From a virus (Duplodnaviria > Heunggongvirae > Uroviricota > Caudoviricetes): 64,000 nucleotides of DNA. The first letter of the stretch is position 1, and every line of letters begins with the position of its first letter. Where the stretch lies: the IMG/VR virus record IMGVR_UViG_3300037067_027626; one strand, given 5' to 3'. Position numbers and translations under genes: made by a program. Below the pieces are notes generated by a model, which saw nothing but the letters and a program-made list of their open reading frames with translations, ran no database searches and was not told where the DNA came from. Of this stretch, positions 1 through 38,627 are shown piece by piece.

Positions 1-1011
1 CTAATACACAACTTGTTTAACTTCTTCTTTTGGTGTTTCTAGATTCATAACTGCTTTGTGATAATACATCCACTTGTTATTATATTCTCGGCATACATCA
101 AGACAGTTATTCTCGCATATTTTATCTAATTTGGTATCGTGAGTATTAAACCATATCTCTCTTTCTTTTCTCGTGTTCTCACCAATAACCCCTATCGGTT
201 TACCCATCTCTCGCATATAAATCACACAGGGATAATGGTACTTCCCACCAATGGCAATATCATCAAGAACCAACGGGCATCTATTCGTATCGGTTTCTCT
301 AATTCCTCTGACATGGATACCATTTTTAATATTCTGAATCCTATATTTTAATATCGGATGTTTATTAATTATTTCTTCAGGCAAACCAACAAGCATGTTT
401 AATGCTTTATTGTATTGTGCAGATGGAATTATTCTAATATCGGCTACACCTAAAGTATCTGCAAATATTACGGATTCAACACACTCATTAACATTTAGTT
501 CGGTGAATACCATACCAACCGTTACATAAGTTAATTGAGATAGGTATTTAATATTCTCAACTACTTTTTCCCAAAGCCCGTGTATTCCACCCGCCATAAT
601 ATTCCCCGTTGAGCAACAACCCCCATCAAGCGAAATAGAAAAATCATTAACACCACATGATATAAGATGTTTATAACAGTCTAAATCAGCCGTTCCGTTA
701 GTTGATAATGCAATTCGTTTAACCTTATTTTCTTTGCAGTAATATACTAACTCACCCAAAGAAGAATATAAAGTAGGTTCGCCACCAGTAAAACGAACAT
801 TTACCAAACCCTCATTAACCCATAATTTAAGTATCTTCATAGCAATAAAAGGGTTCATATCGCCTTTATGGATTGTTCCTCTACAATAAGGACACTTAAA
901 ATTACACCTGTCTGTAATGAGTAATTCACATCTTTGTAATGGGGATATAGTTGAAGATGTTCTTGCCCTAATTTCAGATAAAGTATAAAATCCTATATCT
1001 TCTAATTTCAT
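1..1011 (-). CDS. Radical SAM enzyme, MoaA/twitch-like (C-terminal extra Cys cluster)
   Basis: Has the CNFKCPYC (CX3CX2C) radical SAM motif near the N-terminus. A GGEPTL glycine-rich SAM-binding motif and an STNGT segment follow. Four to five C-terminal Cys suggest an auxiliary cluster. A stop codon sits at window positions 1-3. Confidence 0.6.
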   Translation of the reverse strand: MKLEDIGFYTLSEIRARTSSTISPLQRCELLITDRCNFKCPYCRGTIHKGDMNPFIAMKILKLWVNEGLVNVRFTGGEPTLYSSLGELVYYCKENKVKRIALSTNGTADLDCYKHLISCGVNDFSISLDGGCCSTGNIMAGGIHGLWEKVVENIKYLSQLTYVTVGMVFTELNVNECVESVIFADTLGVADIRIIPSAQYNKALNMLVGLPEEIINKHPILKYRIQNIKNGIHVRGIRETDTNRCPLVLDDIAIGGKYHYPCVIYMREMGKPIGVIGENTRKEREIWFNTHDTKLDKICENNCLDVCREYNNKWMYYHKAVMNLETPKEEVKQVVY

Positions 1012-1042
1012 TTTCTTATTCCTTAAAGATTCATCAGATTAT

Positions 1043-1414
1043 TTATATTCTCCCACCGCATGAAATACACATCTTTATGACCTTATCCTCTTTCCTCCAG
1101 ATTAAAGGACTCTCTAAATATTCTACGGGAAGTTTTTCTATATGAGGTTTTTTACATCTAGGGCAAAGGCATCGTGTGTTGTGAATTTCTCCCGAAAGTT
1201 GTACTTTCATTCTTGCCCTATTTCCATCTCCATACTCTGTCTTTTCTTTATCAGGGTCAGAACTAATATTCTTTGTTTGGGCAAATATCGTTCTGCCTGC
1301 TAGGTATTTAGCCGCCCACATCTTTCCTTTTCTGTGCGCTTTTTTCTGCGACATTATATGTTGAGCCAGAGTTTGATAATCAGGAAAGTCTTTATTACAA
1401 GAATGACAAAGCAT
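1043..1414 (-). CDS. Cys-rich zinc-ribbon protein, hypothetical
   Basis: Contains the pairs CHSC...CLCPRC...CISCGG. The ORF is compact and lies in the minus-strand operon. Confidence 0.4.
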   Translation of the reverse strand: MLCHSCNKDFPDYQTLAQHIMSQKKAHRKGKMWAAKYLAGRTIFAQTKNISSDPDKEKTEYGDGNRARMKVQLSGEIHNTRCLCPRCKKPHIEKLPVEYLESPLIWRKEDKVIKMCISCGGRI

Positions 1415-1428
1415 TTTTATCCTCTCTT

Positions 1429-1710
1429 TTAAGTATCTTGGTCTATCCAGACACCGATATTGTCTTCAGTATTCCACGCTTTTAGCCATTCATCTAAACA
1501 ATCCTCTATTTGCCATTTCTTTTTCATGGTATAAGCACCACTTATTTTATCTTTGGCTTTGCACATCATTGACCTTAAATATCTGAATATTGAAGCGTGA
1601 ACATCATCAGTAACTAATATTGCGTTGGTAGTTACGTATACAGGTATATATCCTGCATCTTTTTGATAACTTAATATAGGGAAAACTTTGCGTGATAACT
1701 TTAACTGCAT
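1429..1710 (-). CDS. hypothetical protein
   Basis: A 93-aa ORF packed in the minus-strand gene array. Confidence 0.35.
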   Translation of the reverse strand: MQLKLSRKVFPILSYQKDAGYIPVYVTTNAILVTDDVHASIFRYLRSMMCKAKDKISGAYTMKKKWQIEDCLDEWLKAWNTEDNIGVWIDQDT

Positions 1711-1884
1711 AGCCCCATTCCAAATTTGGCAAACACAAACCCCATTATCATCTTCGGCAAATGCGGGTTCAAGTGTATATTCAAACTCATATTAGCTTTC
1801 CTCACGCTTAGCACTTATCTGCCTTACTTTACCTAGAGGATAACCGCCATTGTCATTCATCGCTAAGTATAATTTAACAGTCAT

Positions 1885-2160
1885 TTAATATATCCTCATT
1901 CCTAATCTTCGCCTACGGTTTTCATCTTCCCGTTGCAATCTTTCGTGGCGAACTTGGGAAGCCGCCACTTCAGCATCATTCCTAGCACGTTGCACTTCTT
2001 GTTGGGCATAATATACTTTTTGGTGAGTTTGTTGCTCGATATATCTAATGTCATCGTTAACATCTTCAATTTGCTGTTGAAGTAATTCAATTACAGCGTC
2101 CTTTTCAGTATTAAGTTGGCGATAATATTTGAATCTCATTCTAATCTTTTCAACGTTCAT
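1885..2160 (-). CDS. hypothetical coiled-coil protein
   Basis: Charged, heptad-like sequence (QQQIEDVNDDIRYIEQQ). The overlapping 1902..2090 ORF is treated as spurious. Confidence 0.35.
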   Translation of the reverse strand: MNVEKIRMRFKYYRQLNTEKDAVIELLQQQIEDVNDDIRYIEQQTHQKVYYAQQEVQRARNDAEVAASQVRHERLQREDENRRRRLGMRIY

Positions 2161-2233
2161 TTAGCAACCTCCCTAAGTAATTCGGGGTTTTCTGTAATGT
2201 TACCAATAACCTCTACGAACATATCATTCTCAA

Positions 2234-2428
2234 TTATGTATTCTCCAATAGATTCTTATTGGCGATTATCTCTCCTTTGATAAGAGCAACACCTTCATAA
2301 AAACCATTGCCACTAGGCTTAACTTCTTTTAGGGTGATTTCATATTCCTTGCGTGCTTCTGATTCATTATCAAATTGATTTACCGATATACCATCGTAAC
2401 CCATATCTATAAGAACAAAGTATTTCAT
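2234..2428 (-). CDS. hypothetical protein
   Basis: A 64-aa ORF with an ATGA overlap to the upstream gene, suggesting translational coupling. Confidence 0.35.
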   Translation of the reverse strand: MKYFVLIDMGYDGISVNQFDNESEARKEYEITLKEVKPSGNGFYEGVALIKGEIIANKNLLENT

Positions 2429-2673
2429 TCTCTTTCAACCAAATGCCAAGTATTTTTATATTTTCCCCCAAATACAGATGGCTCTTTAAACTCTACATCT
2501 TGAGCAAAATAAACAGCATCATCTAAAAAGACTTGCCCATTAACTATCCCTTTTTGTTTATCTTTAACTCTAGTTATAATCATCGGGTATTCTTCTCCTT
2601 CTTGAATATTGTAATATTGGGCAATTTCCCCTACTACGTAATGTGCTATTCTGCCAGCGATTAAACCTTGCAT
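2425..2673 (-). CDS. hypothetical protein
   Basis: An 82-aa ORF that overlaps its neighbour by 4 nt. Confidence 0.35.
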   Translation of the reverse strand: MQGLIAGRIAHYVVGEIAQYYNIQEGEEYPMIITRVKDKQKGIVNGQVFLDDAVYFAQDVEFKEPSVFGGKYKNTWHLVERE

Positions 2674-2675
2674 AG

Positions 2676-2918
2676 TTATAAACCTCCAATACCGACTTTT
2701 CTATCGGGCATATAAGGTTCAAGGTGACTTTCGCACCGTTGCCCTTTTCTACACGGATGTAATTTACAGGAATGCCCCCAACCCTTACTTTCGTCTTCCC
2801 TAATTTCCTCATCAGTAAAGATATGCAAACATTCTTCACATACCCATATTCTATACTCATCTGGCGGTAAGTTTTCCACACCATGTGGATGTTTATGTTC
2901 TGGATAATTTATATTCAT
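2676..2918 (-). CDS. Cys/His-rich small protein
   Basis: Contains CEEC...HSC..HPC motifs. The alternative-frame ORF 2570..2884 is rejected. Confidence 0.4.
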   Translation of the reverse strand: MNINYPEHKHPHGVENLPPDEYRIWVCEECLHIFTDEEIREDESKGWGHSCKLHPCRKGQRCESHLEPYMPDRKVGIGGL

Positions 2919-3039: not shown

Positions 3040-3306
3040 TTAACTTCTATCCCATAACATCATACAATAATTAGCTACGTCTACTAATTCTTTTTTGACT
3101 GTTGCTTTATTTTTATCAATCCATTCTTGAGAATAATTATTGTGCCACGCAAAATATTCCCCCAGTTCTTCAATCAGGCGGTGCTCAAGAAAACTAATAG
3201 GGCAATCCTGCCACCCGCCTTTATGGTCATTCTTGCACAAAACTTCATCCATTGCTTTGGCGAACTCTATTACTTGGGGATGCTTTATACTATTTAATCC
3301 TTCCAT
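3040..3306 (-). CDS. MazG-like nucleotide pyrophosphohydrolase domain protein
   Basis: An 88-aa protein matching the pattern KHP..A....L.KN.KGG.W....L.RL.EELGE....ELVDVANY, which is typical of small phage MazG/DUF1599-like proteins. Confidence 0.4.
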   Translation of the reverse strand: MEGLNSIKHPQVIEFAKAMDEVLCKNDHKGGWQDCPISFLEHRLIEELGEYFAWHNNYSQEWIDKNKATVKKELVDVANYCMMLWDRS

Positions 3307-3319
3307 CGTTAATCTCCTT

Positions 3320-4087
3320 TTAATTTACCGCCATTTTACTTGACCCGAAGTATTTAAGGGCTTCTATAAGTTTTTCTTCTGTAGTTCCATTTGGTACTTT
3401 AGACTCTGCGATATTTGCCCCCTGCTTTGATTCTTTTGAATTATAACCAAGATTAGATAATGCCCCCACTACTTCGTTATAATTTGATTCCTCATCTATC
3501 GGAGATGAATCAGGATTGACCTTGTTGCCCAAATATGCTATGCTATCATTATAGCGATTCGGTAGGAGCACTCCCGTAGCGTCAAGGGACCTGCCAGCGT
3601 GGGTATCGCTACCCTTAAACGCTTTGGTGGCAGTCGCTAAGAATCCCTCGAAATTATTCGAGTGGAGTGTCAAGGGGTTTCTTACTTTGGGGATTTTTAA
3701 AGGCTTCTCTTTATACTCTTTAACTGTTTCAAACTCTATGCGGTCTGCAAGTGTCGGCTCATGTTTCCTTCTCCTGATTCTCCCCACATAATAGGCAACC
3801 ACTAAGACCAAGGCGAAGAACCCGCCCGTCTGCCAGAAGATATAGAACTGGTGCTTGAATATAGTTATCCTGCCCAAATAAAAGAGAACCACAAATAACA
3901 AGATAGCCCCGATTACATCCATAATAATCATGGCTTTCTGTTTTTTGAAGTTCTCTTTTATAGGTTTTGATGAACCAAGGAATTTCGCTAATCTGAATAT
4001 CGGGAATAATAAAGAGTCAAGAATAAAATAACCCTGTTTTTCTGTACTTGATTGTCTAGTAGACATCGTAGCACCCCCGTTAATCAT
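3320..4087 (-). CDS. membrane protein carrying the shared FLATATKAFKGSDTHAGRSLDATGV module
   Basis: The N-terminal half has two to three hydrophobic TM segments. The middle contains a 97-nt block identical to one in ORF 11348..12226. Confidence 0.4.
   Translation of the reverse strand: MINGGATMSTRQSSTEKQGYFILDSLLFPIFRLAKFLGSSKPIKENFKKQKAMIIMDVIGAILLFVVLFYLGRITIFKHQFYIFWQTGGFFALVLVVAYYVGRIRRRKHEPTLADRIEFETVKEYKEKPLKIPKVRNPLTLHSNNFEGFLATATKAFKGSDTHAGRSLDATGVLLPNRYNDSIAYLGNKVNPDSSPIDEESNYNEVVGALSNLGYNSKESKQGANIAESKVPNGTTEEKLIEALKYFGSSKMAVN
3550..3646. repeat. copy 1 of a 97-nt near-identical block (2 mismatches) shared with 12103-12199
   Basis: The block tatagcgattcggtagg[a/g]gcactcccgtagcgtcaag[g/a]gacctgccagcgtgggtatcgctacccttaaacgctttggtggcagtcgctaagaatcc occurs twice. 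Flanking DNA diverges, but the encoded peptides stay similar. Confidence 0.7.
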
Positions 4088-4304
4088 AATACTTTTTATG
4101 TTGCCAAGTTGGTAGAATAATAGTTTCCCTATGTATCTTCCTTTTCATATTAGCACTTAATTCACCGAATTGGTCAAATAAATCTTTCTGCAACACTGCG
4201 AAATTTCTTATGCCATTTTCGGGACAGTTCCCATTACATCCATTCGTATAATGGGAACAATGCCCCACATTGTCGAAGTCGATTATCCAGTGAGGAGTAC
4301 ACAA
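4080..4304 (-). CDS. hypothetical Cys-rich protein
   Basis: A 74-aa ORF containing CSHYTNGCNGNC. Confidence 0.3.
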   Translation of the reverse strand: MCTPHWIIDFDNVGHCSHYTNGCNGNCPENGIRNFAVLQKDLFDQFGELSANMKRKIHRETIILPTWQHKKYYD

Positions 4305-4306
4305 GG

Positions 4307-4732
4307 TTAGTCATCTCCTGTGTCCACCGCATTCCCATCTTCATCGACTAATTTTTCAGAGTCATCCCTAATAACTTTTTCCGCATCTACGGATTTGCCC
4401 GATAACCTTAACTGCTCATCTTTGGCCATGGGGCGTTTTTCTACGATTTCCCCATCATTGGGATTCGTGAAAATTATATCTTCTTTCTCATAAGTTATCA
4501 CGCAGTCTACTGGTCTCATCTCATATCCTGAACGAATCTTTTCTGCACAGGAATTAACCACTCCTTCTTTGGTGGCTATATCCGCTTTAATACTTGTCTG
4601 TGCGGATTTTAGTTGGTCGAGCTTCTCATTAATTTCCGCAGAGGCTCTTGCCATCTTCCTTGAAATGTCCAGTAACTCCTTGTCTGTAAACTCATGTTTT
4701 AAGAACCGTGTCTCCGTTAGAATGTTGTCCAT
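4307..4732 (-). CDS. hypothetical acidic protein
   Basis: A 141-aa ORF with a D/E-rich C-terminus. Confidence 0.4.
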   Translation of the reverse strand: MDNILTETRFLKHEFTDKELLDISRKMARASAEINEKLDQLKSAQTSIKADIATKEGVVNSCAEKIRSGYEMRPVDCVITYEKEDIIFTNPNDGEIVEKRPMAKDEQLRLSGKSVDAEKVIRDDSEKLVDEDGNAVDTGDD

Positions 4733-4756
4733 TACTTTTTTAAATCCTCTCCTTTT

Positions 4757-5116
4757 TTATTTATTATGCTTTGTGTGCATATGGCGTTCTACATTAACAA
4801 AGTGCCTATGACATTCAGGGCATACACCATTCATAATTCGCTTCTTTGTTTTAGATATTTGACTTAAAGCACCATTTAATTGTGTCTCTGTTTGAGTTAA
4901 TTTATTTTGTGTTTCTATTAATTGTTCCCTTAACTTTTCTGCTTCAGTCTTACTAATATAACTTTGAGGATGACCATTAGGGCAGTAGAATGTTCTATGG
5001 GTTTCCAATAATCCCTGCCTTAAAGAATTGGTTAATGCAAAAAGTACTCCACAATTACAACATTCCTCTGTTACAAAAGTAGTTTGTGTTTTTGTTGTTA
5101 TAGATTCTACTCCCAT
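4757..5116 (-). CDS. zinc-finger protein
   Basis: Contains the pairs CCNC...C.NGH and CPEC. Confidence 0.4.
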   Translation of the reverse strand: MGVESITTKTQTTFVTEECCNCGVLFALTNSLRQGLLETHRTFYCPNGHPQSYISKTEAEKLREQLIETQNKLTQTETQLNGALSQISKTKKRIMNGVCPECHRHFVNVERHMHTKHNK

Positions 5117-5242
5117 TTAATTTTCTCCTTTAAATTCTTTTCTTGCATTCAGGGCAGATATTTAGTTTTAATTTATTGTTGATTTCTGAGGGTACTACTT
5201 CTTTACCACAATTAGGACACATAATTTTTTTATTTAACATCT

Positions 5243-6343
5243 TTACCATCCATCATTATGACTTTCTATTTGAGGTTTATTATCTTTCTTTTGAAAGCCA
5301 GTATTATTGTTCTTGCGGTAACTCACACCCCCCATTTTTATAAAACCGTCTTTGCCACACATCTCTCTTAATCTGTCGGCACAAGCCCCACCTATATGTG
5401 CTTCCAGTTCATCGAGATTTAGATTAGTTGTTATAATAATAGGCAACCCATTTGTATACCGTGAATCTATTATGCGGAAATAAACACTCTGGACAAAACT
5501 CAAATCTTTAGGTTTAACCTTGCCTATATCGTCTATGATAAGTAGATTTACTTTTTCGTATTGTTGGTAAACCGATTCCTCATTCTCGCCACTTTGATTG
5601 AATGTTGCCCTAATCCTTGCAAATAATTGCGTTTCTGAAACATACAGAATGGGGCAACGGTAATAAATTATTCCACTGTTAGACACATATCCTATATCAC
5701 TCTTATTTATGATATTATTTATTACCGCACAGACTAAGTGCGTTTTGCCAATACCGTAAATATTAGGGGAATATAATAAGACGGATAAACTATCCTCATA
5801 CTTATATTGAGACAGATAATTATAGGCTTTTAACTGTAATTTACTTTCGTAGTTATCAAATGTTTTTTCTTTAAATAACGAGGGGATATTACTTGACTCA
5901 ATCCATTTCTTTTTCGTTTGCGGTGTTAAATATTGTAATTCTTTATCCCATCTTTCTTTATAGGATTTCTCTATCTCTTTTTGCTTTTCTTGTTCTTTTA
6001 ACTTTTCTGCCGCTATTTCTTTATCGAAATTACCTAACGCCAGTTTAACATCGCAATTTTGTTTGCCTAATAATTGATTAACTATCTTCACTGTGGCTTC
6101 TGTGTTCCCTTTTAATTTTTCTAAATGCAACGCATATCTAGCGGAAAGGACTACTTCTTTATCGTCTAAATAATCTAACCTAGTTCCTCTTAAACAAGCA
6201 ACTATCGGAGTAGTTTGTAATTCTTGAGAGGCATTATTCAAACATGTTTTCCAGTAAGATTGGAGATTATTGCTCGATGTCTGAGAATGCTCCATTTGGT
6301 CTTTGCCCTGCGATTTCTTTAGTATCTCGTTTATTGATTCCAT
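5243..6343 (-). CDS. DnaC/IstB-like AAA+ helicase loader
   Basis: Walker A motif GIGKTHL and Walker B motif LLIIDDIG are present. The start was moved from 6385 to the Met at 6343, which has AAAGGA 9 nt upstream. It still overlaps the upstream gene. Confidence 0.65.
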   Translation of the reverse strand: MESINEILKKSQGKDQMEHSQTSSNNLQSYWKTCLNNASQELQTTPIVACLRGTRLDYLDDKEVVLSARYALHLEKLKGNTEATVKIVNQLLGKQNCDVKLALGNFDKEIAAEKLKEQEKQKEIEKSYKERWDKELQYLTPQTKKKWIESSNIPSLFKEKTFDNYESKLQLKAYNYLSQYKYEDSLSVLLYSPNIYGIGKTHLVCAVINNIINKSDIGYVSNSGIIYYRCPILYVSETQLFARIRATFNQSGENEESVYQQYEKVNLLIIDDIGKVKPKDLSFVQSVYFRIIDSRYTNGLPIIITTNLNLDELEAHIGGACADRLREMCGKDGFIKMGGVSYRKNNNTGFQKKDNKPQIESHNDGW

Positions 6344-7118
6344 ATTTATCATTCCTTTGATTTTCTTCTTTAAATTTTTGTGCATTTTCTAGCCAATTTC
6401 GCCATGCTGTTTTAGGTAGTTTTAATATTTTTTTTGTTTTGTTTTCCCACCATTCTTTAAATAATATAAGTTCATTATTGCAATCTATTAATGGATACTT
6501 ATTTATTAAGTTATAAAAATAATTATAAAAATCATCATCTAATTTTAAGTGTTGTATGTATTCTATCTTTTGTATTCTATCTTTTGTAATATTTTCTTTA
6601 GTATCTTTTGTATCTGACATGGGTGTCACTATATTTACGCTTTGGGGAGTGACATTGGTGTCAGAGGGGGAGTGACAATCTTGGCACTGTTCTGTGTTAT
6701 TTTTGTCATTGATAGTAGTGTCATTGTCAATAGTATCACTGATAAGTGTGTCAATGTCATGTGTGTCAGTGTCAATAGTGTCATGGGGTAATTTATATTG
6801 GTAGCCAACCCATTGGGAATAATCTTTTTGTAATCCATATTCATTAATTCCACCGTTTTTATTTTTAGTGATGATATTGGCACTACATAGATTATTAAGA
6901 GAACGGCATATAACTCTTGGCGGTATCCCAGTTAATTGAGAAAATTGGGATATACTAATTTTGTCTGATTTTTTATGGTATCCATATGTTTTGCGAATTA
7001 GAACACACAATATAGGGAAGTCATATTTGGATGTTATTATATTCCATAATCTTCCAAATTGGTCTAATAATTCATTGGCTATAGATGTATAACCGTCTTC
7101 TAGTTGTGGGTTGGGCAT
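6267..7118 (-). CDS. phage replisome organizer / DnaD-like replication initiation protein
   Basis: The N-terminal winged-helix region (NGYTSIANELL...IRKTYGYHKKSDKISISQFSQLTGI..R.V.RSLNNL) matches the replisome organizer N-domain of Firmicutes phages. Confidence 0.55.
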   Translation of the reverse strand: MPNPQLEDGYTSIANELLDQFGRLWNIITSKYDFPILCVLIRKTYGYHKKSDKISISQFSQLTGIPPRVICRSLNNLCSANIITKNKNGGINEYGLQKDYSQWVGYQYKLPHDTIDTDTHDIDTLISDTIDNDTTINDKNNTEQCQDCHSPSDTNVTPQSVNIVTPMSDTKDTKENITKDRIQKIEYIQHLKLDDDFYNYFYNLINKYPLIDCNNELILFKEWWENKTKKILKLPKTAWRNWLENAQKFKEENQRNDKYGINKRDTKEIAGQRPNGAFSDIEQ

Positions 7119-7717
7119 ATCATATCCTCTGATAAGTAGTCTGTTACGTTATTTATGTGTTCTGTTGTTATTTTATAATGGCAATGCCGATGAGTTATTC
7201 TACAGTTGTTCATCGTGTTATTGTTGCGATTCCAGTCATTGTGGTGAGCATCTATTAAGGAGTTTGATATATGTTCGCTACAATATTCACAAGGTAGATA
7301 TTTATATTTAGCGAGGAGAGAACTGATACGCTGTTCTTTAATGAGACTCCATAATTTATTATTACTAATAGGGTAGGGGGTCTGTTTTATTTTTGGGTTA
7401 TAGTCTTTCCATTTTGTATAATCTTCTTGTAGCCCATAAATTGTTGTGTATGATTGTTTGTCTTTTGTGATTATATTACTTTCAAAGAGGTTATTGAGCG
7501 ACCTACAAACAAGGCGTTGATTAATACCTGTTATTTGAGCAAATTGCCCTAAACTAATTTTGTCTGATTTTTTATGATACCCATATGTTTTGCGAATTAA
7601 TGCTAATAAAACAGGCATATCATATATGGATTTAAGTATTGTCCATAGACGAGGGAATTGTTCCATTAATTCATTAGCGATAGAGGTGTAACCATCTTCT
7701 AGTTGTGGTTTTGGCAT
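7100..7717 (-). CDS. replisome-organizer N-domain paralog fused to an HNH-like C-terminal domain
   Basis: The first ~90 aa are about 65% identical to ORF 6267..7118. The C-terminus carries CEYC...DAHHNDWNRNNN...N...HRHCH, an HNH-type motif. Confidence 0.5.
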   Translation of the reverse strand: MPKPQLEDGYTSIANELMEQFPRLWTILKSIYDMPVLLALIRKTYGYHKKSDKISLGQFAQITGINQRLVCRSLNNLFESNIITKDKQSYTTIYGLQEDYTKWKDYNPKIKQTPYPISNNKLWSLIKEQRISSLLAKYKYLPCEYCSEHISNSLIDAHHNDWNRNNNTMNNCRITHRHCHYKITTEHINNVTDYLSEDMICPTHN

Positions 7718-10799: not shown

Positions 10800-11417
10800 T
10801 TATTTAACTTCCTTATTCACTAACTGAAAGGAATTATCTCTACGTTTTCTTATTGGTATCCATTCTTTACCAACTATATGTGACCACCCTTCTCCCCTGG
10901 CGATACTTTCTATAGTGCTGTGATGTACTCCGAATACTTGTGAGGCATCTTTAGAATTCCATAAACCGCATGGTATTGATGCTCTTATAATACGGACAGC
11001 TTCATCAGTCAATTTAACTGAACCTTGTTTCTCGCCCATAGCAGTTCGTCCATGTTTTCTTTTATCCGCTTCATTGTCTGAGTAAGTCCCCCATAAAAGG
11101 TTATTAGGAATATTATTTAATTTGTTACCATCTAAATGACGAACTACGTATCCCTTTTGTGGTTTACTTCCATGAAAGTAATTACAAATTACTGAATGAA
11201 CTATCATACTAGTTCTTTTACTATCTATTATGAAACTAACAAAAGCATAACCATTACTACCAATACCTTCTTTTAGTCGAAAAGGCGATGGCTTTCTTGA
11301 CTGGTTCCTTGCGTTAGAATAACAATATATATGCCCATCGCTACCAGCTAAATATTTGTTGTTTGTGCCTTGTATAGGCAAAAGTTGTATATCCAAACCC
11401 ACGGATAATTCTTCCAT
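10800..11417 (-). CDS. HNH homing endonuclease (HNH_3/AP2-like)
   Basis: The motif HLDGNKLNNIPNNLLWGTYSDNEADKRKHG is present. The 5' end overlaps the upstream ORF. Confidence 0.55.
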   Translation of the reverse strand: MEELSVGLDIQLLPIQGTNNKYLAGSDGHIYCYSNARNQSRKPSPFRLKEGIGSNGYAFVSFIIDSKRTSMIVHSVICNYFHGSKPQKGYVVRHLDGNKLNNIPNNLLWGTYSDNEADKRKHGRTAMGEKQGSVKLTDEAVRIIRASIPCGLWNSKDASQVFGVHHSTIESIARGEGWSHIVGKEWIPIRKRRDNSFQLVNKEVK

Positions 11418-15706: not shown

Positions 15707-16066
15707 TTATTTAGTGCGTTTTTCTGGATGTTTTTCGTAAAGTTCATGGTCAGGGAAACATTCAAGAATACAATTTTCTCGGCAAGTTTTTCCGCCACGA
15801 CTTAAAGGAATTATATGTGAAAGTGTTATTCCCCTCCAATCCCTATTTTTATCTTTACATGTCATACAATGTTCACCGTGTTCTTTGATTAATTGTGCTT
15901 TTAATTCTGTGCGTTTTTGTAGTTCTGTTTTCTGTTTTGCGGATACTTTATTTATCGGCTTTTTTGCCAATCCATTGCCATAAGACAATAAATGTTTCTT
16001 ACTTCTTAGCGGAGTTTTTGTTCTGAGGGGCGTGTATTGGTTTAGGGTTGAATTAAAACGCCTCAT
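15707..16066 (-). CDS. small HNH-like nuclease
   Basis: Contains C..C...HIIPLSRGG..C..NC, an HNH-type motif. Confidence 0.4.
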   Translation of the reverse strand: MRRFNSTLNQYTPLRTKTPLRSKKHLLSYGNGLAKKPINKVSAKQKTELQKRTELKAQLIKEHGEHCMTCKDKNRDWRGITLSHIIPLSRGGKTCRENCILECFPDHELYEKHPEKRTK

Positions 16067-16285
16067 GCTTTTCTCTCATATCTTTTTAACATTATGGGTC
16101 TTAGTAATAAGTAAATGAACGCCAAAACCAACATTGAGGATAATAGCCATTCTCTTTTAGACATTAAATTACCACTCACCCAACCCATGAGTATATAAGG
16201 AAAATTCTCAATTATAGTTTTCATTTTTAACCCTCTCTTTAATTAACATATTCCATACCGAGATATTTATTTTGGGAATTATCCC

Positions 16286-16314
16286 TTGACATCGTGTATA
16301 AGGTGTGGTACAAT
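16286..16314 (+). promoter_or_regulatory. sigma70-type promoter TTGACA-N17-TACAAT for the transposase gene
   Basis: TTGACA lies at 16286-16291 and TACAAT at 16309-16314, with a 17-nt spacer. An AAGGGG ribosome-binding site follows before the ATG at 16338. Confidence 0.5.
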
Positions 16315-16337
16315 ACATGATGTAAGGGGTGAGAAAT

Positions 16338-17198
16338 ATGAACAAATACACAGTTAAAACTTTTGATAAAGAATTTCCGAATGATGATTCTTGTCTTGAG
16401 TGGATTAAGAATCATCGCTATCCTAACGGAATTGAATGCCCTATCTGTAAGAAAGTAACTAAACATCATAAGATGACTGGTCGTCCTGTTTATGAATGCG
16501 ATTATTGTGGGCATCAAATATCGCCAATGGCTAATACTATTTTTCACAAATCGCCTACTTCTTTGAGGACTTGGTTTCACGCTATCTTTTTGATGTCCAA
16601 TACAAGGTGTGGAATCTCTGCTAAACAACTTCAACGTGAGACTGGTGTTACTTATAAAACGGCTTGGAGAATGTTTAAACAGATTCGCACACTTCTCAAT
16701 GAAAGATATGGTATGTTTTCGGGAATGGTCGAAGTTGATGAAACATACGTTGGTGGTGCTAGGCAAGGCAAGCGTGGTCGTGGTGCAAGCGGTAAGACCA
16801 TCGTAGCGGGCATTGTAGAACGACAAGGCAAAGTTTCCGCTAGTGTCGTTTCTGATGTTAAATCTCACACCCTTATTCCCATGATTCAAGAAAAGGTTGC
16901 TCAAAATACCACTGTATTTACCGATGAAATGCCTAGTTATAATAGACTTGAGCAAGTTGGTTTTAACCATGAAGTCATTAACCATGCGAATAAGGTCTAT
17001 GTTGATGGTGAAATCCACACCAACACAATTGACGGCTTTTGGGCATTGGTTAAAGGTGGTATCAAGGGTGTTTATCATCATGTTAGTCCTGAATATTTAG
17101 ATTCCTATGTTAATGAATACGAATTTCGTTATAACCATCGCAAAGACGAAACACCTATGTTTCAGTCTTTTCTGAATCGGATTGAGCCTCACGCTTGA
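16338..17198 (+). CDS. IS1595-family (ISXO2-like) DDE transposase
   Basis: The N-terminus has the zinc ribbon CPICK...CDYCGH. Further motifs follow in the order expected for IS1595 transposases: SAKQLQRETGVTYKTAWRM, EVDETYVGG, HTNTIDGFWALVKGGIKGVYHHVS, and YVNEYEFRYNHR. An alternative GTG start lies at 16329. The antisense ORF 16239..17081 is rejected. Confidence 0.75.
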   Translation: MNKYTVKTFDKEFPNDDSCLEWIKNHRYPNGIECPICKKVTKHHKMTGRPVYECDYCGHQISPMANTIFHKSPTSLRTWFHAIFLMSNTRCGISAKQLQRETGVTYKTAWRMFKQIRTLLNERYGMFSGMVEVDETYVGGARQGKRGRGASGKTIVAGIVERQGKVSASVVSDVKSHTLIPMIQEKVAQNTTVFTDEMPSYNRLEQVGFNHEVINHANKVYVDGEIHTNTIDGFWALVKGGIKGVYHHVSPEYLDSYVNEYEFRYNHRKDETPMFQSFLNRIEPHA

Positions 17199-17215
17199 TA
17201 GGCTGTGAGGCTTTG
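17186..17215 (+). terminator. hairpin terminator after the transposase gene
   Basis: The stem gcctcac...gtgaggc is followed by tttg and overlaps the stop codon. Confidence 0.35.
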
Positions 17216-17257
17216 TCTAGTATGGCGTGAAAGTCTTTTTTGGTTATTCCAACATCT

Positions 17258-18142
17258 CTATTCCTTCTTTTTATTTTCTGCTTCGGGAATTGACTTAGAT
17301 TTTCCTTTTTTTGTTCCATATTTTTCACCTTTCGGTTCAACAATATCTCGCCAAGTTTTTATTTCTTTTTTTAAAGTGTCTAAATCTTCCATGAAGTGTA
17401 ATGAAAGTGGTGTATCATCTATAGCATATCGTTCTGCTTTTGTAAGTTCTATAATCTTTTTTGGAGAATCACTTTTTATGGCATAAACATCTAGACCTTC
17501 TACATCGTTATCAACTTCCCCTATCTTATGTATCAAACTAGCAATCATTAATCTTGCTTCGTAAATACTCATATTAGCATCATAGACATCATTGAGAACA
17601 AATTCAGCGTATGGGGCAGCAATACCAGTAGTAAAATATCGTTCAGTTCCTAATTCAGTTCCACCAGTGGTTGTTACATGACCTACAGTTGGTGTACTAT
17701 CTGCATCGATGGTTGCAAAAAGGATGGTAGTATCGAATTCTAAACCTTTACCAGTTATCTTGTCCGATAGTTTGCAAACATTAGTTTCAATAATATCTCT
17801 CCAATCATCACAACCCAAAGGAGACTCTATAATTTCAGGGTTTATTTCAACTAAAATTCTGTTTGCAAAATCATAATTCCCTGCGTAACAACATAATACT
17901 ATTCTCCCGTCTTTAAATTGGCTTGATACAATTTTTGTTTCAAGCGATTTTACGTGAGTACCTCTGTATCTAGTTACTTTCCTATCCGCTCCAATGACAA
18001 TACCATCTTTACAGGTCATGGCTATTCCGACAGTCACTCTTTTTAACCCCCTTTCTAGTTCGGTATCAGTTACTAATATGGGGCTTTGTTTATTTCTTGT
18101 CAATAATTTAGAATTATCGACAGCTTCATTGTAAGGTATCAT
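17258..18142 (-). CDS. proteasome beta-subunit-like / HslV-like Ntn-hydrolase with N-terminal propeptide
   Basis: The sequence TVGIAMTCKDGIVIGADRKVT places Thr1, Asp17 and about Lys33/34 at the catalytic-triad spacing of 20S beta subunits. Later motifs GNYDFANRIL and GIAAPYAEFVLND match the GxxADxxxxxxxL and GSGxxYAxGVLD signatures. Confidence 0.5.
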   Translation of the reverse strand: MIPYNEAVDNSKLLTRNKQSPILVTDTELERGLKRVTVGIAMTCKDGIVIGADRKVTRYRGTHVKSLETKIVSSQFKDGRIVLCCYAGNYDFANRILVEINPEIIESPLGCDDWRDIIETNVCKLSDKITGKGLEFDTTILFATIDADSTPTVGHVTTTGGTELGTERYFTTGIAAPYAEFVLNDVYDANMSIYEARLMIASLIHKIGEVDNDVEGLDVYAIKSDSPKKIIELTKAERYAIDDTPLSLHFMEDLDTLKKEIKTWRDIVEPKGEKYGTKKGKSKSIPEAENKKKE

Positions 18143-18477
18143 TTAGTTACCCCCTTTGAAGCTATACATGATATTAAGGGATAATTCCCTTTATTTTTAT
18201 TATATCCCAAAATTCTTGCAATGCTATTCGAAGGGATTGCGTCTTTATAATGGAATTTATAATATCCGCCCAATATTAACTCCGAATTGCCAGATAGAGT
18301 AACCATAGAACTGTTATCTAAATATACTTTTGTGGAAGTTGAGGTATGTTCAAATGCTATAACTTTGCCCTCTATAGTGTTATTAACATAGGTATAATCA
18401 GCAAAAGGATATAAGTATAATGGCGAGAAGAATAATAATAAACAACATGTGATGATTATATATTTAACCATTTTCAA
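18139..18477 (-). CDS. small secreted protein
   Basis: Has an N-terminal hydrophobic signal-like segment. Confidence 0.4.
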   Translation of the reverse strand: MKMVKYIIITCCLLLFFSPLYLYPFADYTYVNNTIEGKVIAFEHTSTSTKVYLDNSSMVTLSGNSELILGGYYKFHYKDAIPSNSIARILGYNKNKGNYPLISCIASKGVTK

Positions 18478-33876: not shown

Positions 33877-34038
33877 CTATTTAGCCTTGAGTAGTTTCGA
33901 GATTCGCTTTGAGGCTTCGGACTTTGAGATTTTTTCGCCATAGTTAGTTCTGTGTTCAAGTCGAGCTAATAAAGCTCGTTGTGAATCGGTAGCCTTGCCA
34001 GTTAGAACTTTGCCATTGAATTTAACTACTCTTACCAC
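33877..34038 (-). CDS. small basic protein (53 aa)
   Basis: AAGGAG lies 8 nt upstream of a GTG start. Hand-translated to VRVVKFNGKVLTGKATDSQRALLARLEHRTNYGEKISKSEASKRISKLLKAK. Confidence 0.3.
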   Translation of the reverse strand: MVRVVKFNGKVLTGKATDSQRALLARLEHRTNYGEKISKSEASKRISKLLKAK

Positions 34039-34084
34039 TTTTTTCTCCTTTTTTCTGCTATTAGCAGTGTTTATTAGAGCTTTC

Positions 34085-34220
34085 TACGCTCTCATTAGCA
34101 CAGGAAACCTCTTATTAGTAGTTAGGGATTTCCCTTTTAAACTTCTTAATAGGAGAATATCGAGCGCCTAAATTTTGTAAAAATAGGCGCATTTGTTCCT
34201 ATGCTAATGAGAGCGCACAA
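34085..34220. repeat. large inverted repeat (gctctcattagca / tgctaatgagagc) enclosing a gcgccta...taggcgc hairpin
   Basis: Perfect 13-bp inverted arms lie about 105 bp apart, and an inner 7-bp stem has an AT-rich loop. Confidence 0.5.
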
Positions 34221-35093
34221 GTTCATAATTCTTGTACGCTCTCAAATGGATTATGTTAAATTCTTCTGAACTTATCTATCAATTACCTTGCATGGTTAAA
34301 TAAAAGCATTTTAACCATAATCTATCATTCAATATAATCAGTATTGAACAATACCATGATTAATTTTAGTTGATAAGATTTCAACGTTAACATCATCAAG
34401 ACGTTTAAAACGTATTACTGCGATAATTTAACTACATAGATTAGTTGATTAGACTAACGTCTGAAATAATTCAATTCGGTAAAGCTGGTATAATGTTAAC
34501 CTTAAGTACAATATTTATTTTGGCGCATTATAAAATATTCGAGTGCTAAATATATATTGTCGTCATGGCTGTGACTATACTTAAAAGCATAATCAACGCA
34601 TAGCTATTTTCTTATATATTAGTGATGCGTAATTTTATAGCGCATAAATTGTACGATTTATTCAACGAATAATTTACAAACAAACGTTTAATAACTAACC
34701 TTAATAGAATCAAGTTTAGTAGCTTTTATTCGTTTGTCTGTAGCACTAACCACTCTAGGGAATTTATCCGTAGGTTGAGGTATCTCACAATTTAGTCTCA
34801 ACTATTCCGTGTTTCGTAATCATCCCTATTACATTGGTTTATCAACCCCGTCTGTGGTATCCTATTACGGTCTTGGTCTGGTATTGATTTGCTTTGAATA
34901 GTTAATATTCAGTGACTTGTTTCACTTTCGGTATCTAGTGCTATTCACTTGGAGAATTTGAGGGAGTGCGGGAAGGATTTCAACCTAGTTGAATCTATAT
35001 TCAATTACACTCAATATATAGTAGTAATTATTTTCTGTAAATATTCATGCCACATTTAAACTGTTATGGAATTATTACGGAATTTAGATACAA

Positions 35094-35196
35094 AATTCCA
35101 CATCTTAAAAATTCCACATCTTAAATTCTATAAAAATTTGCTTCAAAATAGGCTCAATTTAAAAATATTGGACTTTTTATATCAATTCCACATCTT
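35094..35196. repeat. 3 direct copies of aattccacatctt
   Basis: Copies at about 35094, 35110 and 35184. Confidence 0.5.
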
Positions 35197-35542
35197 TAGA
35201 ATTATGGCATTAGAATTTTGAGGTTATTTTGTGGCACATTCAACGATTTTATATCGGATAGTGTAAAGCATTACGCAATAATGAAAATAGTCTAAAATCG
35301 CAAAATAATGCCATTACAAACGATTTAAGATAATAGTTTTACTGGATTAATTGAGGGAATAATAACGGATTAAAATAATGAATAATGTTACCATCTTAAA
35401 ATTACTGGATAGTTTAACGGATATATTACGGATGATATAACGCAATTTTTAAAAATCTCATATATTCATAAATGAAGTAATACTACCCTATTTTAACAAA
35501 AAGCGAAAATCGGTATTTTAGCCTATATTTTCAATATGGCAT

Positions 35543-35700
35543 AAATACGCCTAATACGACTAGGCGTATCTAATACGACTAGGCGTATTAGGCGTATACT
35601 AGGCGTATCTTGTCTTATTCCCTATTCCCTCAAATATCGCAATTCCCTATTATCTCAATTTGTATCAATTCCCTATTGTTAAAATTCCCTATTCCCTATC
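35543..35700. repeat. iteron cluster: 2 copies of taatacgactaggcgtat, 4-5 copies of aggcgtat, then 6 copies of attccctat
   Basis: Dense short direct repeats in the pattern typical of iteron-type origins. Confidence 0.55.
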
Positions 35701-35790
35701 CGTTATATTAATGATGATATACCGCATCAGCCCGACTATCATTTTAGTTTGCTTCAATAAAAAATTATTTTCCGTAAATTTTTTGGAAGT

Positions 35791-35907
35791 CGCAAAAAGC
35801 ATCGTGCCTCCTATTTAGAGGTCGCCGTATGTTTTTGAACACTTTTTGAAGAAGATTTTAAGGAATTTTTAGAGACATCGCAAAGGCATCGTGTCTGCTA
35901 TTAAGAG
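35791..35907. repeat. two copies of a ~29-bp repeat cgcaaa[a/g]gcatcgtg[c/t]ct[c/g]ctatt[t/a]agag
   Basis: Copies at 35791-35820 and 35879-35907. Confidence 0.5.
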
Positions 35908-36136
35908 ATTTTTAAATAAATAATAAAATGATGAACATATAACTTATAATACTGGAATATTAAATATAAACCGCCATAGAGTTGTATAATATATGAATAA
36001 CAGCCATCGGATTGGATGGGTGATGATATATGAATACTTTACTTTTCTCCTATTAAGAAATACTTGACATTACCCATAATATAGTGCTACGTATTAATTA
36101 ATAGTTCTGTTAATAAGAGAATTATAGGGGAATAAT

Positions 36137-36307
36137 ATGACTGCAAAACAAAAGAAGCCTTGGATTCTAACAAGGGCACGTTCCGAAGCATTAAAAAAGG
36201 CACAGCTCACCCATGTAATTTTGATAAATATCGGCAAGAAGTATCGCAATAAAGAAATCAATAAGTTCCAATTCTTGAAGAAGAATAGACCTAATAAATC
36301 AAAATAA
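36137..36307 (+). CDS. tiny basic protein (56 aa)
   Basis: ATAGGGGAATAAT lies upstream of the ATG. The protein is Lys/Arg-rich. Confidence 0.4.
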   Translation: MTAKQKKPWILTRARSEALKKAQLTHVILINIGKKYRNKEINKFQFLKKNRPNKSK

Positions 36308-36321
36308 GGAGGATTGCTAAT

Positions 36322-36414
36322 ATGGCTTATACTAAAGCAGAGCGTAAAAAGGCGGCAAAGAAAGCCGTTGCCACTAAGCGTAAGAGATACGGCAAGAACT
36401 TAAAGAAGGGATAA
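36322..36414 (+). CDS. tiny basic protein (30 aa)
   Basis: AAGGAGG ribosome-binding site. Translates to MAYTKAERKKAAKKAVATKRKRYGKNLKKG. Confidence 0.4.
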   Translation: MAYTKAERKKAAKKAVATKRKRYGKNLKKG

Positions 36415-36452
36415 ATAAGTATTTCGGATAAATTATTAAAAAGGGAGAATGA

Positions 36453-36548
36453 ATGCCGAAAAGAAAACCAAACAATATGTCAAAGGAACAATGGGCAAAG
36501 GAAAAGACTCAGTGGTATACAGGGAAAGATAAAAAGAAGAAAAAATAA
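36453..36548 (+). CDS. tiny basic protein (31 aa)
   Basis: AAGGGAG ribosome-binding site. Translates to MPKRKPNNMSKEQWAKEKTQWYTGKDKKKKK. Confidence 0.4.
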   Translation: MPKRKPNNMSKEQWAKEKTQWYTGKDKKKKK

Positions 36549-36623
36549 CTTACTGAGCGTCATCAAATAAAATAAGCAAGATTCCTACGAAGCCCAAGGG
36601 CGACAGGAATATAGGGAGAATGA

Positions 36624-36761
36624 ATGCAAGCGTATTGTGTAAAATGTAAACACAAGAGGGAAATGAAAGCCCCAAAAGCCGTTAAAATGAAAAATGGAAG
36701 AAAGGCTACAAAGGGTAAGTGCCCTGTATGCGGAACGGGTATGTACCGTATAGGCGGATAA
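36624..36761 (+). CDS. small basic zinc-ribbon protein (45 aa, DUF5679-like)
   Basis: AGGGAGA ribosome-binding site. Has CVKC...CPVCG pairs separated by a K-rich linker. Confidence 0.45.
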   Translation: MQAYCVKCKHKREMKAPKAVKMKNGRKATKGKCPVCGTGMYRIGG

Positions 36762-36793
36762 TTCTGAGGGAAAATTTGTTCATTTATAAATAA

Positions 36794-36830
36794 GCCCCAT
36801 GATAATTAGTCGTGGGGTTTGTTTATTTTA
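36794..36830 (+). terminator. rho-independent terminator
   Basis: The stem gcccca...tgggg is followed by tttgtttatttta. Confidence 0.45.
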
Positions 36831-37254
36831 GTTGGATTTTTTAGTGAGACTGTCTAGTAAAATCATTCTGCAATAGGTGGTTAACTGCATACCCTTCTTC
36901 TCGGCTTCTACCTTCAATAACCCCTTTTCTCTCAAGGGCATACGTATGAAAACTACGGGCATGTCTTTCTTTCTATAGACCAATATAACACACCTCTATA
37001 TTTATACTGTGAAAAAACTAGCACATATTTAGCGTGTTGTCAAGTGGTCGTGCGTAAATATTTTTGCCCCAAAATACAATACTATATCACTTTGCTATTG
37101 TATTATTATTTTACTGTGTTATCCTACTACTTAAAAGGTACTACACTTGAATCTAAAGTTGGAGGTCTATTATTTTAAGAATATATGAAGGCTATTTTTG
37201 CATTAATCCTTGCGGCAATCGGACTTTACATAAATAAAATTGTGTCTTTGGGTA

Positions 37255-38566
37255 GTAATATCCATCGAATAACCACCCTAACTCTGGAAAAGCTAAACTC
37301 AATATTGAGCAAGCTAATCACAGAACTAAACACGAAAATGAATCGTGAAATGCGTGGAGGTCATATAGGTGGAATCCTTAAATGGGATTATGAGATGACC
37401 CGATACTCCAATAAAAATTGGAGATTAACAGATGAGGAGTCAACTTACTGCCAGGTCTTAATACAACTATAGCTACAATCACTACCCCCACGTGCATAAG
37501 TGCGTCTTTATAGAGTAATCTATATCGAAATTGCCCTAATTCGGTGAAGCCTAAAACGAGAGTCATGGTAATGCCGAGCCAAGCAGAATAGAAATATTCG
37601 GGCGTGTGTAGAGAACATAGAGGCAACCCCTAGTAATAGGGTGAAAACATGTTCCGTCACTCCGTGAAAGCGGAGATTACAGATAGATTCCACAGGGGTA
37701 AGATAATTTGCCCACTCATATAGTAATATGTGAGTTAAATTGCTCCAAATAGGGGGAAGCTAAAAACCGTAAGGTTCATGCTAATCGCCTAACTAAACTA
37801 GAGAATGAATCTAGGAAACTGATGACAGACTAGACGGAGCAAGTCCTGAATAGGACTAAGGTATAGTCGGACACTCCGAATAAATTCGGAGACTAACAAG
37901 TGAAGTGGCATGGTGGGTGTTACGTAATGAAAGATTTGCGTCTTTATAGAGTAATCTATATTGAAAAGAACCACAAATTCGGGGAAAGCTAAAACGAAAG
38001 TCATGCTAACCGCCGAACTAAACTGCTGAATGAAGGCAGGATAAGCGTAGAGAGTAGATGTGGTTGCCCTTTAATTAGGGATAAGGTGTACTCCGACACT
38101 CTAAAGAAATTTGGAGATTAACAAGTGTAATCGTATAATAAGCGAATGCGACCTTTAATAGTGATATTAATTGAATAACCGCCCTAACTCTGGGAAAGCT
38201 AAAATGAAAGTCATGCTAACCGCAGAACTAAATTACCGAATGAAGGTATAAATGCGTAGAGAACATATAGGCGGGGTCTTACGAAAGACCGTGAGATGTT
38301 CCGATACTCATACGAAAGTAAGAGATTAACAAAAAATTCGCAGCCATGTTGGTAGTCCTGAGAACAATCGGGACTTTGAACAGTAATGTTCATCGAATAA
38401 CGCATCAAATTCGGGGAAGCCTAAACTCAATAATGAGCATGGTAATCGCCGAGCTAAACCAAGGAATGAACTTGGGAAACTGTGGACAGACTAGATGGTG
38501 CGAATCCCTATAAATGGGATTGTGGTATAGTCGGGCACTTAACGAAAGTTAAGATTACAGAATCGG
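37255..38566 (+). ncRNA. array of 6 tandem ~180-245-nt structured RNA-like units (unclassified)
   Basis: Unit spans are approximately 37261-37430, 37501-37683, 37722-37900, 37935-38125, 38152-38335 and 38375-38566. Conserved blocks are ggRaagcYuaaa, RgYCAUGSUAAYCGCCGARCUAAA, a hairpin with loop GAAUGAA, and a 3' GAGAUUAACA. Hairpin stems covary between units: ctgc/gcag, tacc/ggta, ccaag/cttgg, ctaga/tctag, cacg/cgtg. A second hairpin covaries as ctcaa-tat-ttgag, aacc-gtaa-ggtt and ctca-ataa-tgag. Two subtypes exist (units 3 and 6 versus units 2, 4 and 5). Confidence 0.55.
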
Positions 38567-38627
38567 ATTGTAGCCGCCATGAGAGAGTCATTCTCCATGT
38601 AAAGTTGTATCCATTTGTGGTGGTAAA

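Follow-up and report, generated by a model that had tools for sequence, protein, structure and literature searches.

Background

Stand-alone homologues of the proteasome are numerous and functionally opaque, and their scattered distribution is unexplained. In this work, we focused on one such gene, located on the minus strand of a 64,000-nucleotide stretch of DNA (IMG/VR record IMGVR_UViG_3300037067_027626, Caudoviricetes; the whole stretch is hereafter called the window). Its longest open reading frame (ORF), 17258-18142, encodes 294 amino acids (aa) and had been described, in a reading of the sequence alone, as a phage accessory protease with a propeptide. How did a proteasome-like gene come to lie in a phage-like genome, and in which form is its product made? 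We found that the gene is the cargo of an insertion sequence (IS) of the IS1595 family, and that it encodes a stand-alone member of the PF00227/MEROPS T1 N-terminal nucleophile (Ntn) hydrolases belonging to a rare, uncharacterised bacterial clade. Taken as a whole, the data make it probable that this passenger of a phage-like genome is a Thr1 hydrolase translated from an internal GTG codon and devoid of propeptide.

The proteasome-like gene lies within an IS1595-type element

A pair of inverted repeats (IRs) brackets both the proteasome-like gene and a convergent transposase gene (Table 1). The repeats end exactly at GGGAATTAT... and each is abutted by the same 8-mer, giving a perfect target site duplication (TSD). 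The element thus delimited comprises, in this order, the left repeat (IRL), the transposase, a small conserved ORF, the passenger and the right repeat (IRR). The small ORF overlaps the 3' end of the transposase gene on the opposite strand, as well as the last 62 nt of the proteasome-like gene. In a reconstruction of the empty site, the small phage ORF whose end was replaced upon insertion regains a different C-terminus of 11 codons. This position inside IRs and an 8-bp TSD, together with the bacterial chromosomal location of the rest of the family, speaks against the earlier proposal of an evolved phage accessory function.

More than 8000 relatives of the transposase were retrieved, those listed being 62-87% identical to it; the few that bear an organism name all come from metagenome-assembled genomes (MAGs) of Chloroflexota. 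Loci with 74-87%-identical transposases display the same architecture and the same IR consensus, GG[TC]GATTATCCCTT..., which flanks related transposases in L023, L026-29, L035, L036 and L037 (L numbers designate the loci compared). Independent copies with the same ends, their own flanks and perfect TSDs were found in L023, L026-29, L035 and L037-38.

Cargo varies among these elements: it is proteasome-like in two of seven distinct elements and unrelated in the other five. The second proteasome-like cargo, in L023, accompanies a transposase 77% identical to that of the window and is a different protein (PF00227, 35.3 bits; 232-255 aa) with a probable Met-Ser start, hence probably Ser1, that has only the first strand in common with the window family. 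The small ORF, on the other hand, is present in all sister elements as 69-74% identical copies (tblastn). In most cases it lies on the strand opposite to the transposase gene and overlaps the 3' end of the latter. It encodes a small basic protein of 54-107 aa with the C-terminal motif TKK[DE]F.AIL[DN]KASQPIK.E..SDS and without any Pfam match. It is a core gene of this IS1595 clade and may act as a transposition regulator; we know of no previous description of it.

Several sister elements also occur in phage-like surroundings. Those of L037-39 adjoin capsid, serine recombinase and D5-primase genes and that of L035 lies within an array of small ORFs; the cargo of the elements in these phage-like contigs (L035, L037, L038, L039) consists of small membrane proteins. 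This IS lineage may preferentially colonise phage genomes.

Table 1 Features of the window and of the sister elements (positions are those of each locus)
Locus	Feature	Position	Strand	Details
Window	Left TSD copy, 8 bp, TTTATTTT	16266-16273		Identical 8-mers abut both IR ends
Window	Whole element, 1916 bp	16274-18189		TSD TTTATTTT; cargo: proteasome-like protein of the studied family
Window	IRL, GGGAATTATCCCTTGACATCGTGTATA, 27 nt	16274-16300	+	24/27 complementary to 18163-18189
Window	Promoter-like TTGACA-17-TACAAT (11/12, with TG)	16286-16314	+	Reaches into IRL, faces transposase; consensus match only
Window	IS1595-family transposase, 286 aa	16338-17198	+	Zn-ribbon (PF12760, E 3e-11) and DDE_Tnp_IS1595 (PF12762, E 7e-43)
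Window	Conserved small ORF, 54 aa, ...TKKDFHAILDKASQPIKREAQSDS...	17155-17319	-	Gene call in L002; tblastn
Window	Proteasome-like Ntn hydrolase, probable true coding sequence, 259 aa	17258-18037	-	GTG start 18035-18037; Thr1 codon 18032-18034; basis: PF00227, fold, family alignment, start-codon analysis
Window	Disordered Lys/Glu-rich tail, residues 269-294	17261-17338	-	pLDDT ~51; in all family members, sequence variable
Window	C-terminal helical extension, residues 235-243 and 250-268	17339-17440	-	Corresponds to Anbu-type H5 helix; AF2 pLDDT ~90
Window	35 in-frame codons upstream of GTG (earlier "propeptide"), probably 5' leader	18038-18142	-	pLDDT <50 for residues 12-33; homologue loci
Window	Shine-Dalgarno motif AAAGGGGG	18047-18054	-	9 nt upstream of GTG
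Window	Promoter-like TTGACA-17-CATATT (10/12)	18075-18103	-	Between annotated ATG and GTG; consensus match, suggestive only
Window	Small phage ORF, 112 aa, predicted membrane-like	18139-18477	-	3' end replaced by IS sequence on insertion
Window	IRR, reverse complement GGGAATTATCCCTTAATATCATGTATA	18163-18189	-	
Window	Right TSD copy, 8 bp, TTTATTTT	18190-18197		
L021	Element	336-2556		Flanking 8-mers differ; cargo: membrane proteins
L021	Small ORF	1768-1950		
L023	Element, 2454 bp	3926-6379		TSD TTATATTT; cargo: different PF00227 protein and 163-aa protein
L023	Small ORF	4818-4997		
L026-L029	Element, 2789 bp	3926-6714 (L026)		TSD TTTTATAA; cargo: lipoprotein-like and membrane proteins
L026	Small ORF	4818-5000		
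L035	Element	3780-5595		TSD TAACATAA; cargo: 202-aa membrane-anchored protein
L035	Small ORF	4662-4868		
L036	Element	4-2886		Left flank cut off by stretch end; cargo: lipoprotein-like and membrane proteins
L036	Small ORF	897-1067		
L037-L038	Element	3095-5551 (L037)		TSD AAATCTTT; cargo: 109-aa membrane protein
L037	Small ORF	3976-4299		

Fold and catalytic residues of the passenger

The Pfam profile PF00227 (Proteasome) recognised the protein with 29.7 bits, above the gathering cutoff of 22.4, while NCBIfam yielded only sub-threshold matches, to archaeal beta and alpha subunits, and phmmer against PDB chains gave weak matches to both subunit types. Searched with the family profile, 20S beta chains were reached at E ~1e-7. 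The peptide TVGIAMTCKDGIVIGADRKVT starts at residue 37 of the long frame, so that Asp53 and Lys70 occupy mature positions 17 and 34. In a profile alignment with the mature beta subunit of A. fulgidus (1j2q_H), T37 aligns with Thr1, D53 with Glu17 and K70 with Lys33. These three residues and G88, equivalent to the Gly47 of the oxyanion hole, are invariant in the family alignment of 39 sequences, as are the blocks G-[IV]-[AG]-APYAE and VDNDVEG. Relative to 1j2q_H, the GSG motif is replaced by G-I/V-A/G and the RD166xxS169GG loop by the invariant VDNDVEG; the acidic residue of the loop is therefore kept and two second-shell serines are lost.

The predicted structure (AlphaFold2, AF2) displays the alpha-beta-beta-alpha Ntn fold with strands S1-S11 and helices H1-H4, followed by a helical extension whose motif LSxAER...PLSFxF...W is conserved in the family; Foldseek alignments to Anbu cover about 255 columns. 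The comparison figures for the window protein were 16.7-21.4 with 20S alpha/beta subunits, 20.6 with Anbu, 16.7 with HslV, 14.3-15.8 with BPH and 11-12.9 with Connectase. As modelled, the fold is as near to 20S alpha/beta and to Anbu as these are to one another, HslV and BPH being further away.

The proteasome-beta-like hydrolase with a Thr1/Asp17/Lys33 triad that had been read from the sequence is thus borne out by the Pfam score, the triad alignment and the fold: since the triad aligns and the best fold match is the proteasome fold, neither a misaligned motif nor an unrelated fold calls it into question. Its K/E-rich C-terminal tail is likewise present and predicted to be disordered, with a local confidence score (pLDDT) given in Table 1, no HslU partner was found nearby, and an alpha subunit was absent within +/-10 kb of the gene and from every homologue locus.

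Translation start and the supposed propeptide

To locate the start, we used the 13 independent loci for which DNA was available. The codon preceding Thr is ATG in seven and GTG in six of them, other Val codons never being used; correspondingly, the residue at -1 in the family alignment is Met or Val, and never Gly. Motifs resembling the Shine-Dalgarno (SD) sequence (at least 5/6 match to AGGAGG) precede this codon in 9 of the 13 loci, against 6.9% of background positions, with a spacer of 9 nt in eight of the nine. In L001 and L008 an in-frame stop lies 8-9 codons upstream of the -1 codon, and in L015 the upstream stretch is open and has no in-frame start codon at all; therefore only the -1 codon can serve as start in these loci. 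L001 and L019 are 98.7% identical in their coding regions, yet a TAA interrupts the would-be leader in L001. The apparent conservation of "ERRF/ERG" at -6 to -3 is an in-frame reading of GAAAGGAGG. The majority of the distant relatives found in the HMM (hidden Markov model) search of representatives likewise start exactly at the -1 Met.

Between the annotated ATG and the GTG lies a promoter-like site that is the second best of the region; it is suggestive only, because shuffled sequence would be expected to hold as many sites of this kind as the region does in total. According to the literature, propeptides occur only in 20S beta and HslV (PMC8665760). Removal of the initiator Met of Anbu by methionine aminopeptidase has been shown experimentally, and BPH likewise lacks a propeptide.

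These data speak against the propeptide that had been proposed: the -1 codon is always ATG or GTG, mostly behind an SD motif, and in three loci an upstream start is impossible. We regard the 36-aa "propeptide" as most likely an artefact of longest-ORF calling, and the short form, starting at GTG, is probably the main product. As for Thr as a free N-terminus, the DNA evidence favours a formylmethionine-Thr start followed by removal of Met.

Distribution and neighbourhoods of the family

A search of 5.8 billion proteins returned 41 homologues (42-53% identity), all of them metagenomic; PF00227 was found in all 40 full-length ones and was missing from one fragment. An exhaustive HMM search of 1.84 billion representatives gave only 176 proteins at E<=1e-3; the tight family, reduced to essentially a single cluster at 50% identity, is therefore rare. 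Among the GTDB species genomes there was a single match, on a 7-kb MAG contig, the sole binned family member belonging to a Thermodesulfovibrionia MAG. Queried by tblastn, 50,697 phage genomes yielded no match to the protein, and scanning IMG/VR with the family profile revealed no relative. PHROGs gave only a weak, irrelevant match and PADLOC none, so that the protein is not a catalogued defence component.

The other family members are single genes in ordinary bacterial chromosome neighbourhoods: that of L004 adjoins rplKAJL-nusG-secE and those of L006 and L008 lie among metabolic genes. The GC content of the family contigs ranges from 38% to 68%. No conserved neighbour, alpha subunit or AAA+ unfoldase was found in the homologue loci, and neither the IRs nor the conserved small ORF occur in any other family locus. 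The transposases beside the homologues of L009 and L011 are of other families, and IRs enclosing them together with the gene are absent, so their adjacency was treated as coincidental. In L011 (1244-4190), the chromosomal member stands between excisionase-like HTH_17 genes and an AriA/NsnB/OLD-type ATPase gene (PADLOC NsnB, E 5e-54), with a transposase nearby; this setting, a single case, resembles a defence island.

Proposed mechanism and alternative explanations

We propose that translation would start at the internal GTG. As in Anbu and BPH, the initiator Met would afterwards be cleaved off by methionine aminopeptidase, leaving Thr1 exposed. Thr1 would act together with Lys33 and Asp17 (K70 and D53) and with the Gly47 oxyanion hole (G88). 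The product is predicted to be an ATP-independent peptidase, probably assembled in rings stabilised by the extra C-terminal helix. The gene would have reached the early-gene region of the phage-like genome by transposition of the IS1595 element, which would have generated the 8-bp duplication.

Several observations weigh against this scheme. With regard to transposition, neither a second copy of the window's IR or element in IMG/VR nor an empty site was found, the search for an uninterrupted close relative of the phage backbone being empty. With regard to catalysis, the second shell differs from that of 20S (Ser129 is replaced by Ile/Val and Ser169 is not Ser), the window copy is the most divergent of the family (mean identity 48%, versus 54-65% for the others), and two otherwise invariant positions are altered in it (R63H and G168R); moreover, Anbu and BPH themselves showed little or no activity on model substrates, so that the window protein can only be regarded as a putative peptidase. 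With regard to the start, the annotated ATG (18140-18142) has a good SD motif of its own and overlaps the upstream ORF as ATGA, which would permit synthesis of a long form followed by self-processing; in L001 and L019 it is an upstream ATG that has the better SD motif; and about 25 of the 39 gene calls extend upstream through an open, weakly similar stretch. On account of this last group of observations, we regard the short form as probable and not as certain.

Some of the observations on the start would also fit a 294-aa precursor cleaved autocatalytically at Val36/Thr37, the enzyme, freed from a 36-aa propeptide, serving the phage in takeover of host proteolysis or in virion maturation. Such a precursor would make use of the open long frame, of an ATG translationally coupled to the upstream ORF and of the 12-30 aa extensions seen in many homologues, and the backbone is indeed phage-like. 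Nevertheless, the invariable start codon at -1, encoding Met or Val where Gly never occurs, and the three loci that exclude an extension argue for the internal start, the leader is predicted to be disordered, and the gene sits inside IS boundaries and a TSD, near no capsid or portal gene, in a family absent from the 50,697 phage genomes and from the IMG/VR searches. We therefore consider a phage protease of this kind quite unlikely.

Divergence, the two altered positions, the absence of Ser129/Ser169 equivalents and the overlap of the tail with another ORF could instead point to a hitch-hiker that is decaying or catalytically inert, in other words a pseudo-enzyme serving neither phage nor IS. 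This, too, seems improbable to us: the reading frame is uninterrupted and retains the triad, Gly47 and 45 invariant family columns, the AF2 core is confident, and the replacement of Ser129 by Ile/Val is family-wide and no lesion of the window copy. At the opposite end, the cargo might be selected, this IS clade recruiting proteasome-like hydrolases along with membrane and lipoprotein genes to the benefit of the element or its carrier, for instance by countering defence, excluding superinfection or turning over a transposition regulator, the enzyme perhaps being a specific peptidase, amidase or ligase instead of a bulk protease. More precisely, a phage-frequenting IS1595 clade might have recruited proteasome-like Ntn hydrolases at least twice from unrelated lineages for a function open to selection, for example the degradation of a host protein involved in defence or regulation. 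The two PF00227 cargoes of very different lineages among seven sister elements (window and L023), the recurrence of the elements in phage contexts (L037-39, L035), the chromosomal family member beside an AriA/NsnB-like defence ATPase and the existence of Connectase, in which the same fold acts as a specific ligase (PMC8665760), are in keeping with selection. Unrelated cargo in five of the seven elements, the missing PADLOC match and the lack of a conserved partner gene are not, and the sample is tiny and not random; both the general and the more precise version appear rather unlikely. The IS1595 passenger starting at GTG and exposing Thr1 thus remains the reading that we favour.

The phage-like backbone and other features of the window

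The surrounding genome is well supported as a phage-like mobile element, in agreement with the sequence-only reading. A minus-strand block encodes O/DnaD-like initiators, a DnaC-like helicase loader, HNH endonucleases, a nucleotidyltransferase, YopX, a PAPS reductase and a radical-SAM enzyme, among small ORFs without annotation that occur in long runs. Within the 64-kb window we identified neither a terminase nor a portal or capsid gene; the designation "phage" is therefore based on the module of replication and early genes. A Firmicutes host, assumed previously, could not be established, the best phage matches of the replication proteins (Bacillus, Listeria and Pseudomonas phages) being only ~32% identical and the named transposase relatives coming from Chloroflexota.

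Two adjacent, overlapping minus-strand ORFs (6267-7118 and 7100-7717), whose N-termini match the same O-like/DnaD-like initiator PHROGs, could have arisen by tandem duplication, or else be one gene that was split or frameshifted. On the plus strand, three large ORFs at 43226-47011 (1261 aa), 48318-56759 (2813 aa) and 58841-62026 (1061 aa) show weak fn3/TIG Ig-like signals only. The large plus-strand ORFs had no PHROG or PDB matches; these three may encode virion proteins, of the tail-fibre or adhesin type, from a phage lineage not yet sampled.

About 4.5 kb between two divergent gene blocks (34000-38600) hold no ORF longer than 95 aa. Within them, 35090-35690 is the AT-richest part (GC 0.285), carries the iterons AATTCCACATCTTA (three copies), the palindromic CTAATACGACTAGGCGTAT (two copies) and ATTCCCTATT... 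(three copies), and lies near a change of sign in GC skew; the region, and especially this part, is a candidate replication origin. Further on, six tandem divergent units of ~195-200 nt (37241-38560, plus strand; mean column identity 57%) matched group I catalytic introns (RF00028, gathering score 50) in a permissive Rfam scan, the whole-window scan at gathering thresholds having missed the array. Scores were 66.6 bits for 38350-38554, 54.4 bits for 37690-37891 and 19-40 bits for three further units. Only 8-27 nt separate the matches, leaving almost no exon, and RNAalifold found compensatory changes in 20 of 37 pairs; an array of minimal group I ribozymes placed back to back where ORFs are scarce looks unusual. 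HNH endonuclease genes number at least four (10800-11417, 15707-16066, 38932-39681 (-), 41161-41748 (+)), two of which flank the intron-like array. No Rfam element was found in or near the proteasome-like gene.

Significance

The locus adds to the stand-alone proteasome homologues a rare 20S/Anbu-like clade known from metagenomes only, and provides a clean example of a "propeptide" invented by longest-ORF calling. It is also the first case that we found of a proteasome-like gene as IS cargo, a sister element carrying another PF00227 protein that is unrelated. If the association with cargo were systematic, it would offer a mechanism of horizontal spread and a tractable system for finding the function, because the unit is only 1.9 kb long and holds three genes. 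If, in addition, the cargo were selected as considered above, small IS elements would constitute a previously unrecognised route for the patchy spread of stand-alone proteasome homologues in bacteria and phages. If it were not systematic, the window would present one more uncharacterised proteasome-like gene brought to a phage by transposition.

Comparison with known systems

The structural likeness to Anbu (PDB 5NYW, 5NYG, 5NYJ, 5LOY) is real and includes the C-terminal helix. Identity is nevertheless only 13-17%, Ser129 is replaced and the window protein has a long K/E-rich tail; an assignment to Anbu was rejected since no Anbu chain appeared at E<=1 in the family-profile search and none of the family loci contains the Anbu operon genes (ATP-grasp, transglutaminase, Alpha-E). 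Against the archaeal 20S beta equivalog (TIGR03634), the protein scored 28 bits for a cutoff of 224. Unlike 20S beta, it has neither an alpha partner nor a Gly-1 propeptide and bears an extra C-terminal helix and tail, and alpha subunits are matched by the family nearly as well as beta subunits; this assignment was rejected on the equivalog score, the absence of alpha, Met/Val at -1 and the loss of Ser129/Ser169. HslV was discarded as well, there being no HslU partner and closer similarity to other families.

Phage-borne proteasome homologues are not new, contrary to the unusualness claimed from the sequence. Fuchs, Alva and Lupas (2021) reported 22 new proteasome-like families without AAA+ partners or functional clues, of which PPH, AAH and CPH are phage-borne, phage occurrences being marked for PMI-4 and DAH too (PMC8665760). 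In addition, BFVD contains about 12 phage proteins with the proteasome fold, e.g. from Vibrio phage phi 3 and Gordonia phage Daredevil, which matched at E 5e-7 or worse, more weakly than Anbu and 20S. The concept is therefore already known. Like the window protein, PPH, AAH, CPH and the BFVD proteins are phage-encoded, have the proteasome fold and lack an unfoldase. By their published description, however, PPH, AAH and CPH (group I) are HslV/BPH-like and compact (~140-220 aa), without S12/H5, PPH being ~140 aa long and without H2 (PMC8665760); compared on this basis, the window protein is set apart by its 259 aa, its H1-H4 and extra C-terminal helices and its fold nearer to 20S/Anbu, and an assignment to PPH was rejected. 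The window gene is moreover IS cargo and not a resident phage gene.

WPH and group II of the same survey resemble the window family more closely by description: similarity to both alpha and beta, a predicted H5 helix, absence of a propeptide and of a conserved genomic partner, and a small number of representatives (PMC8665760). Their H5 is described as a coiled-coil, and WPH and most group II clusters have no phage listing (PMC8665760). All members of the studied family come from anonymous metagenome contigs and may be absent from the nr of 2021.

The vehicle conforms to the IS1595 family in its Zn-ribbon and DDE_Tnp_IS1595 domains, in IRs starting with GG and in its 8-bp TSD, such duplications usually flanking members of the family (PMC8101967). 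A literature search retrieved no report of a proteasome-like IS cargo. Passenger-carrying IS1595 variants are known in ISfinder; Siguier, Gagnevin and Chandler reportedly described IS1595-family insertion sequences with passenger genes in 2009. The end GGGAATTAT fits what we take to be the ISNwi1-group consensus in ISfinder, ggnnatTAT. Set beside these systems, the new points of the locus are the rare 20S/Anbu-like clade and its IS vehicle.
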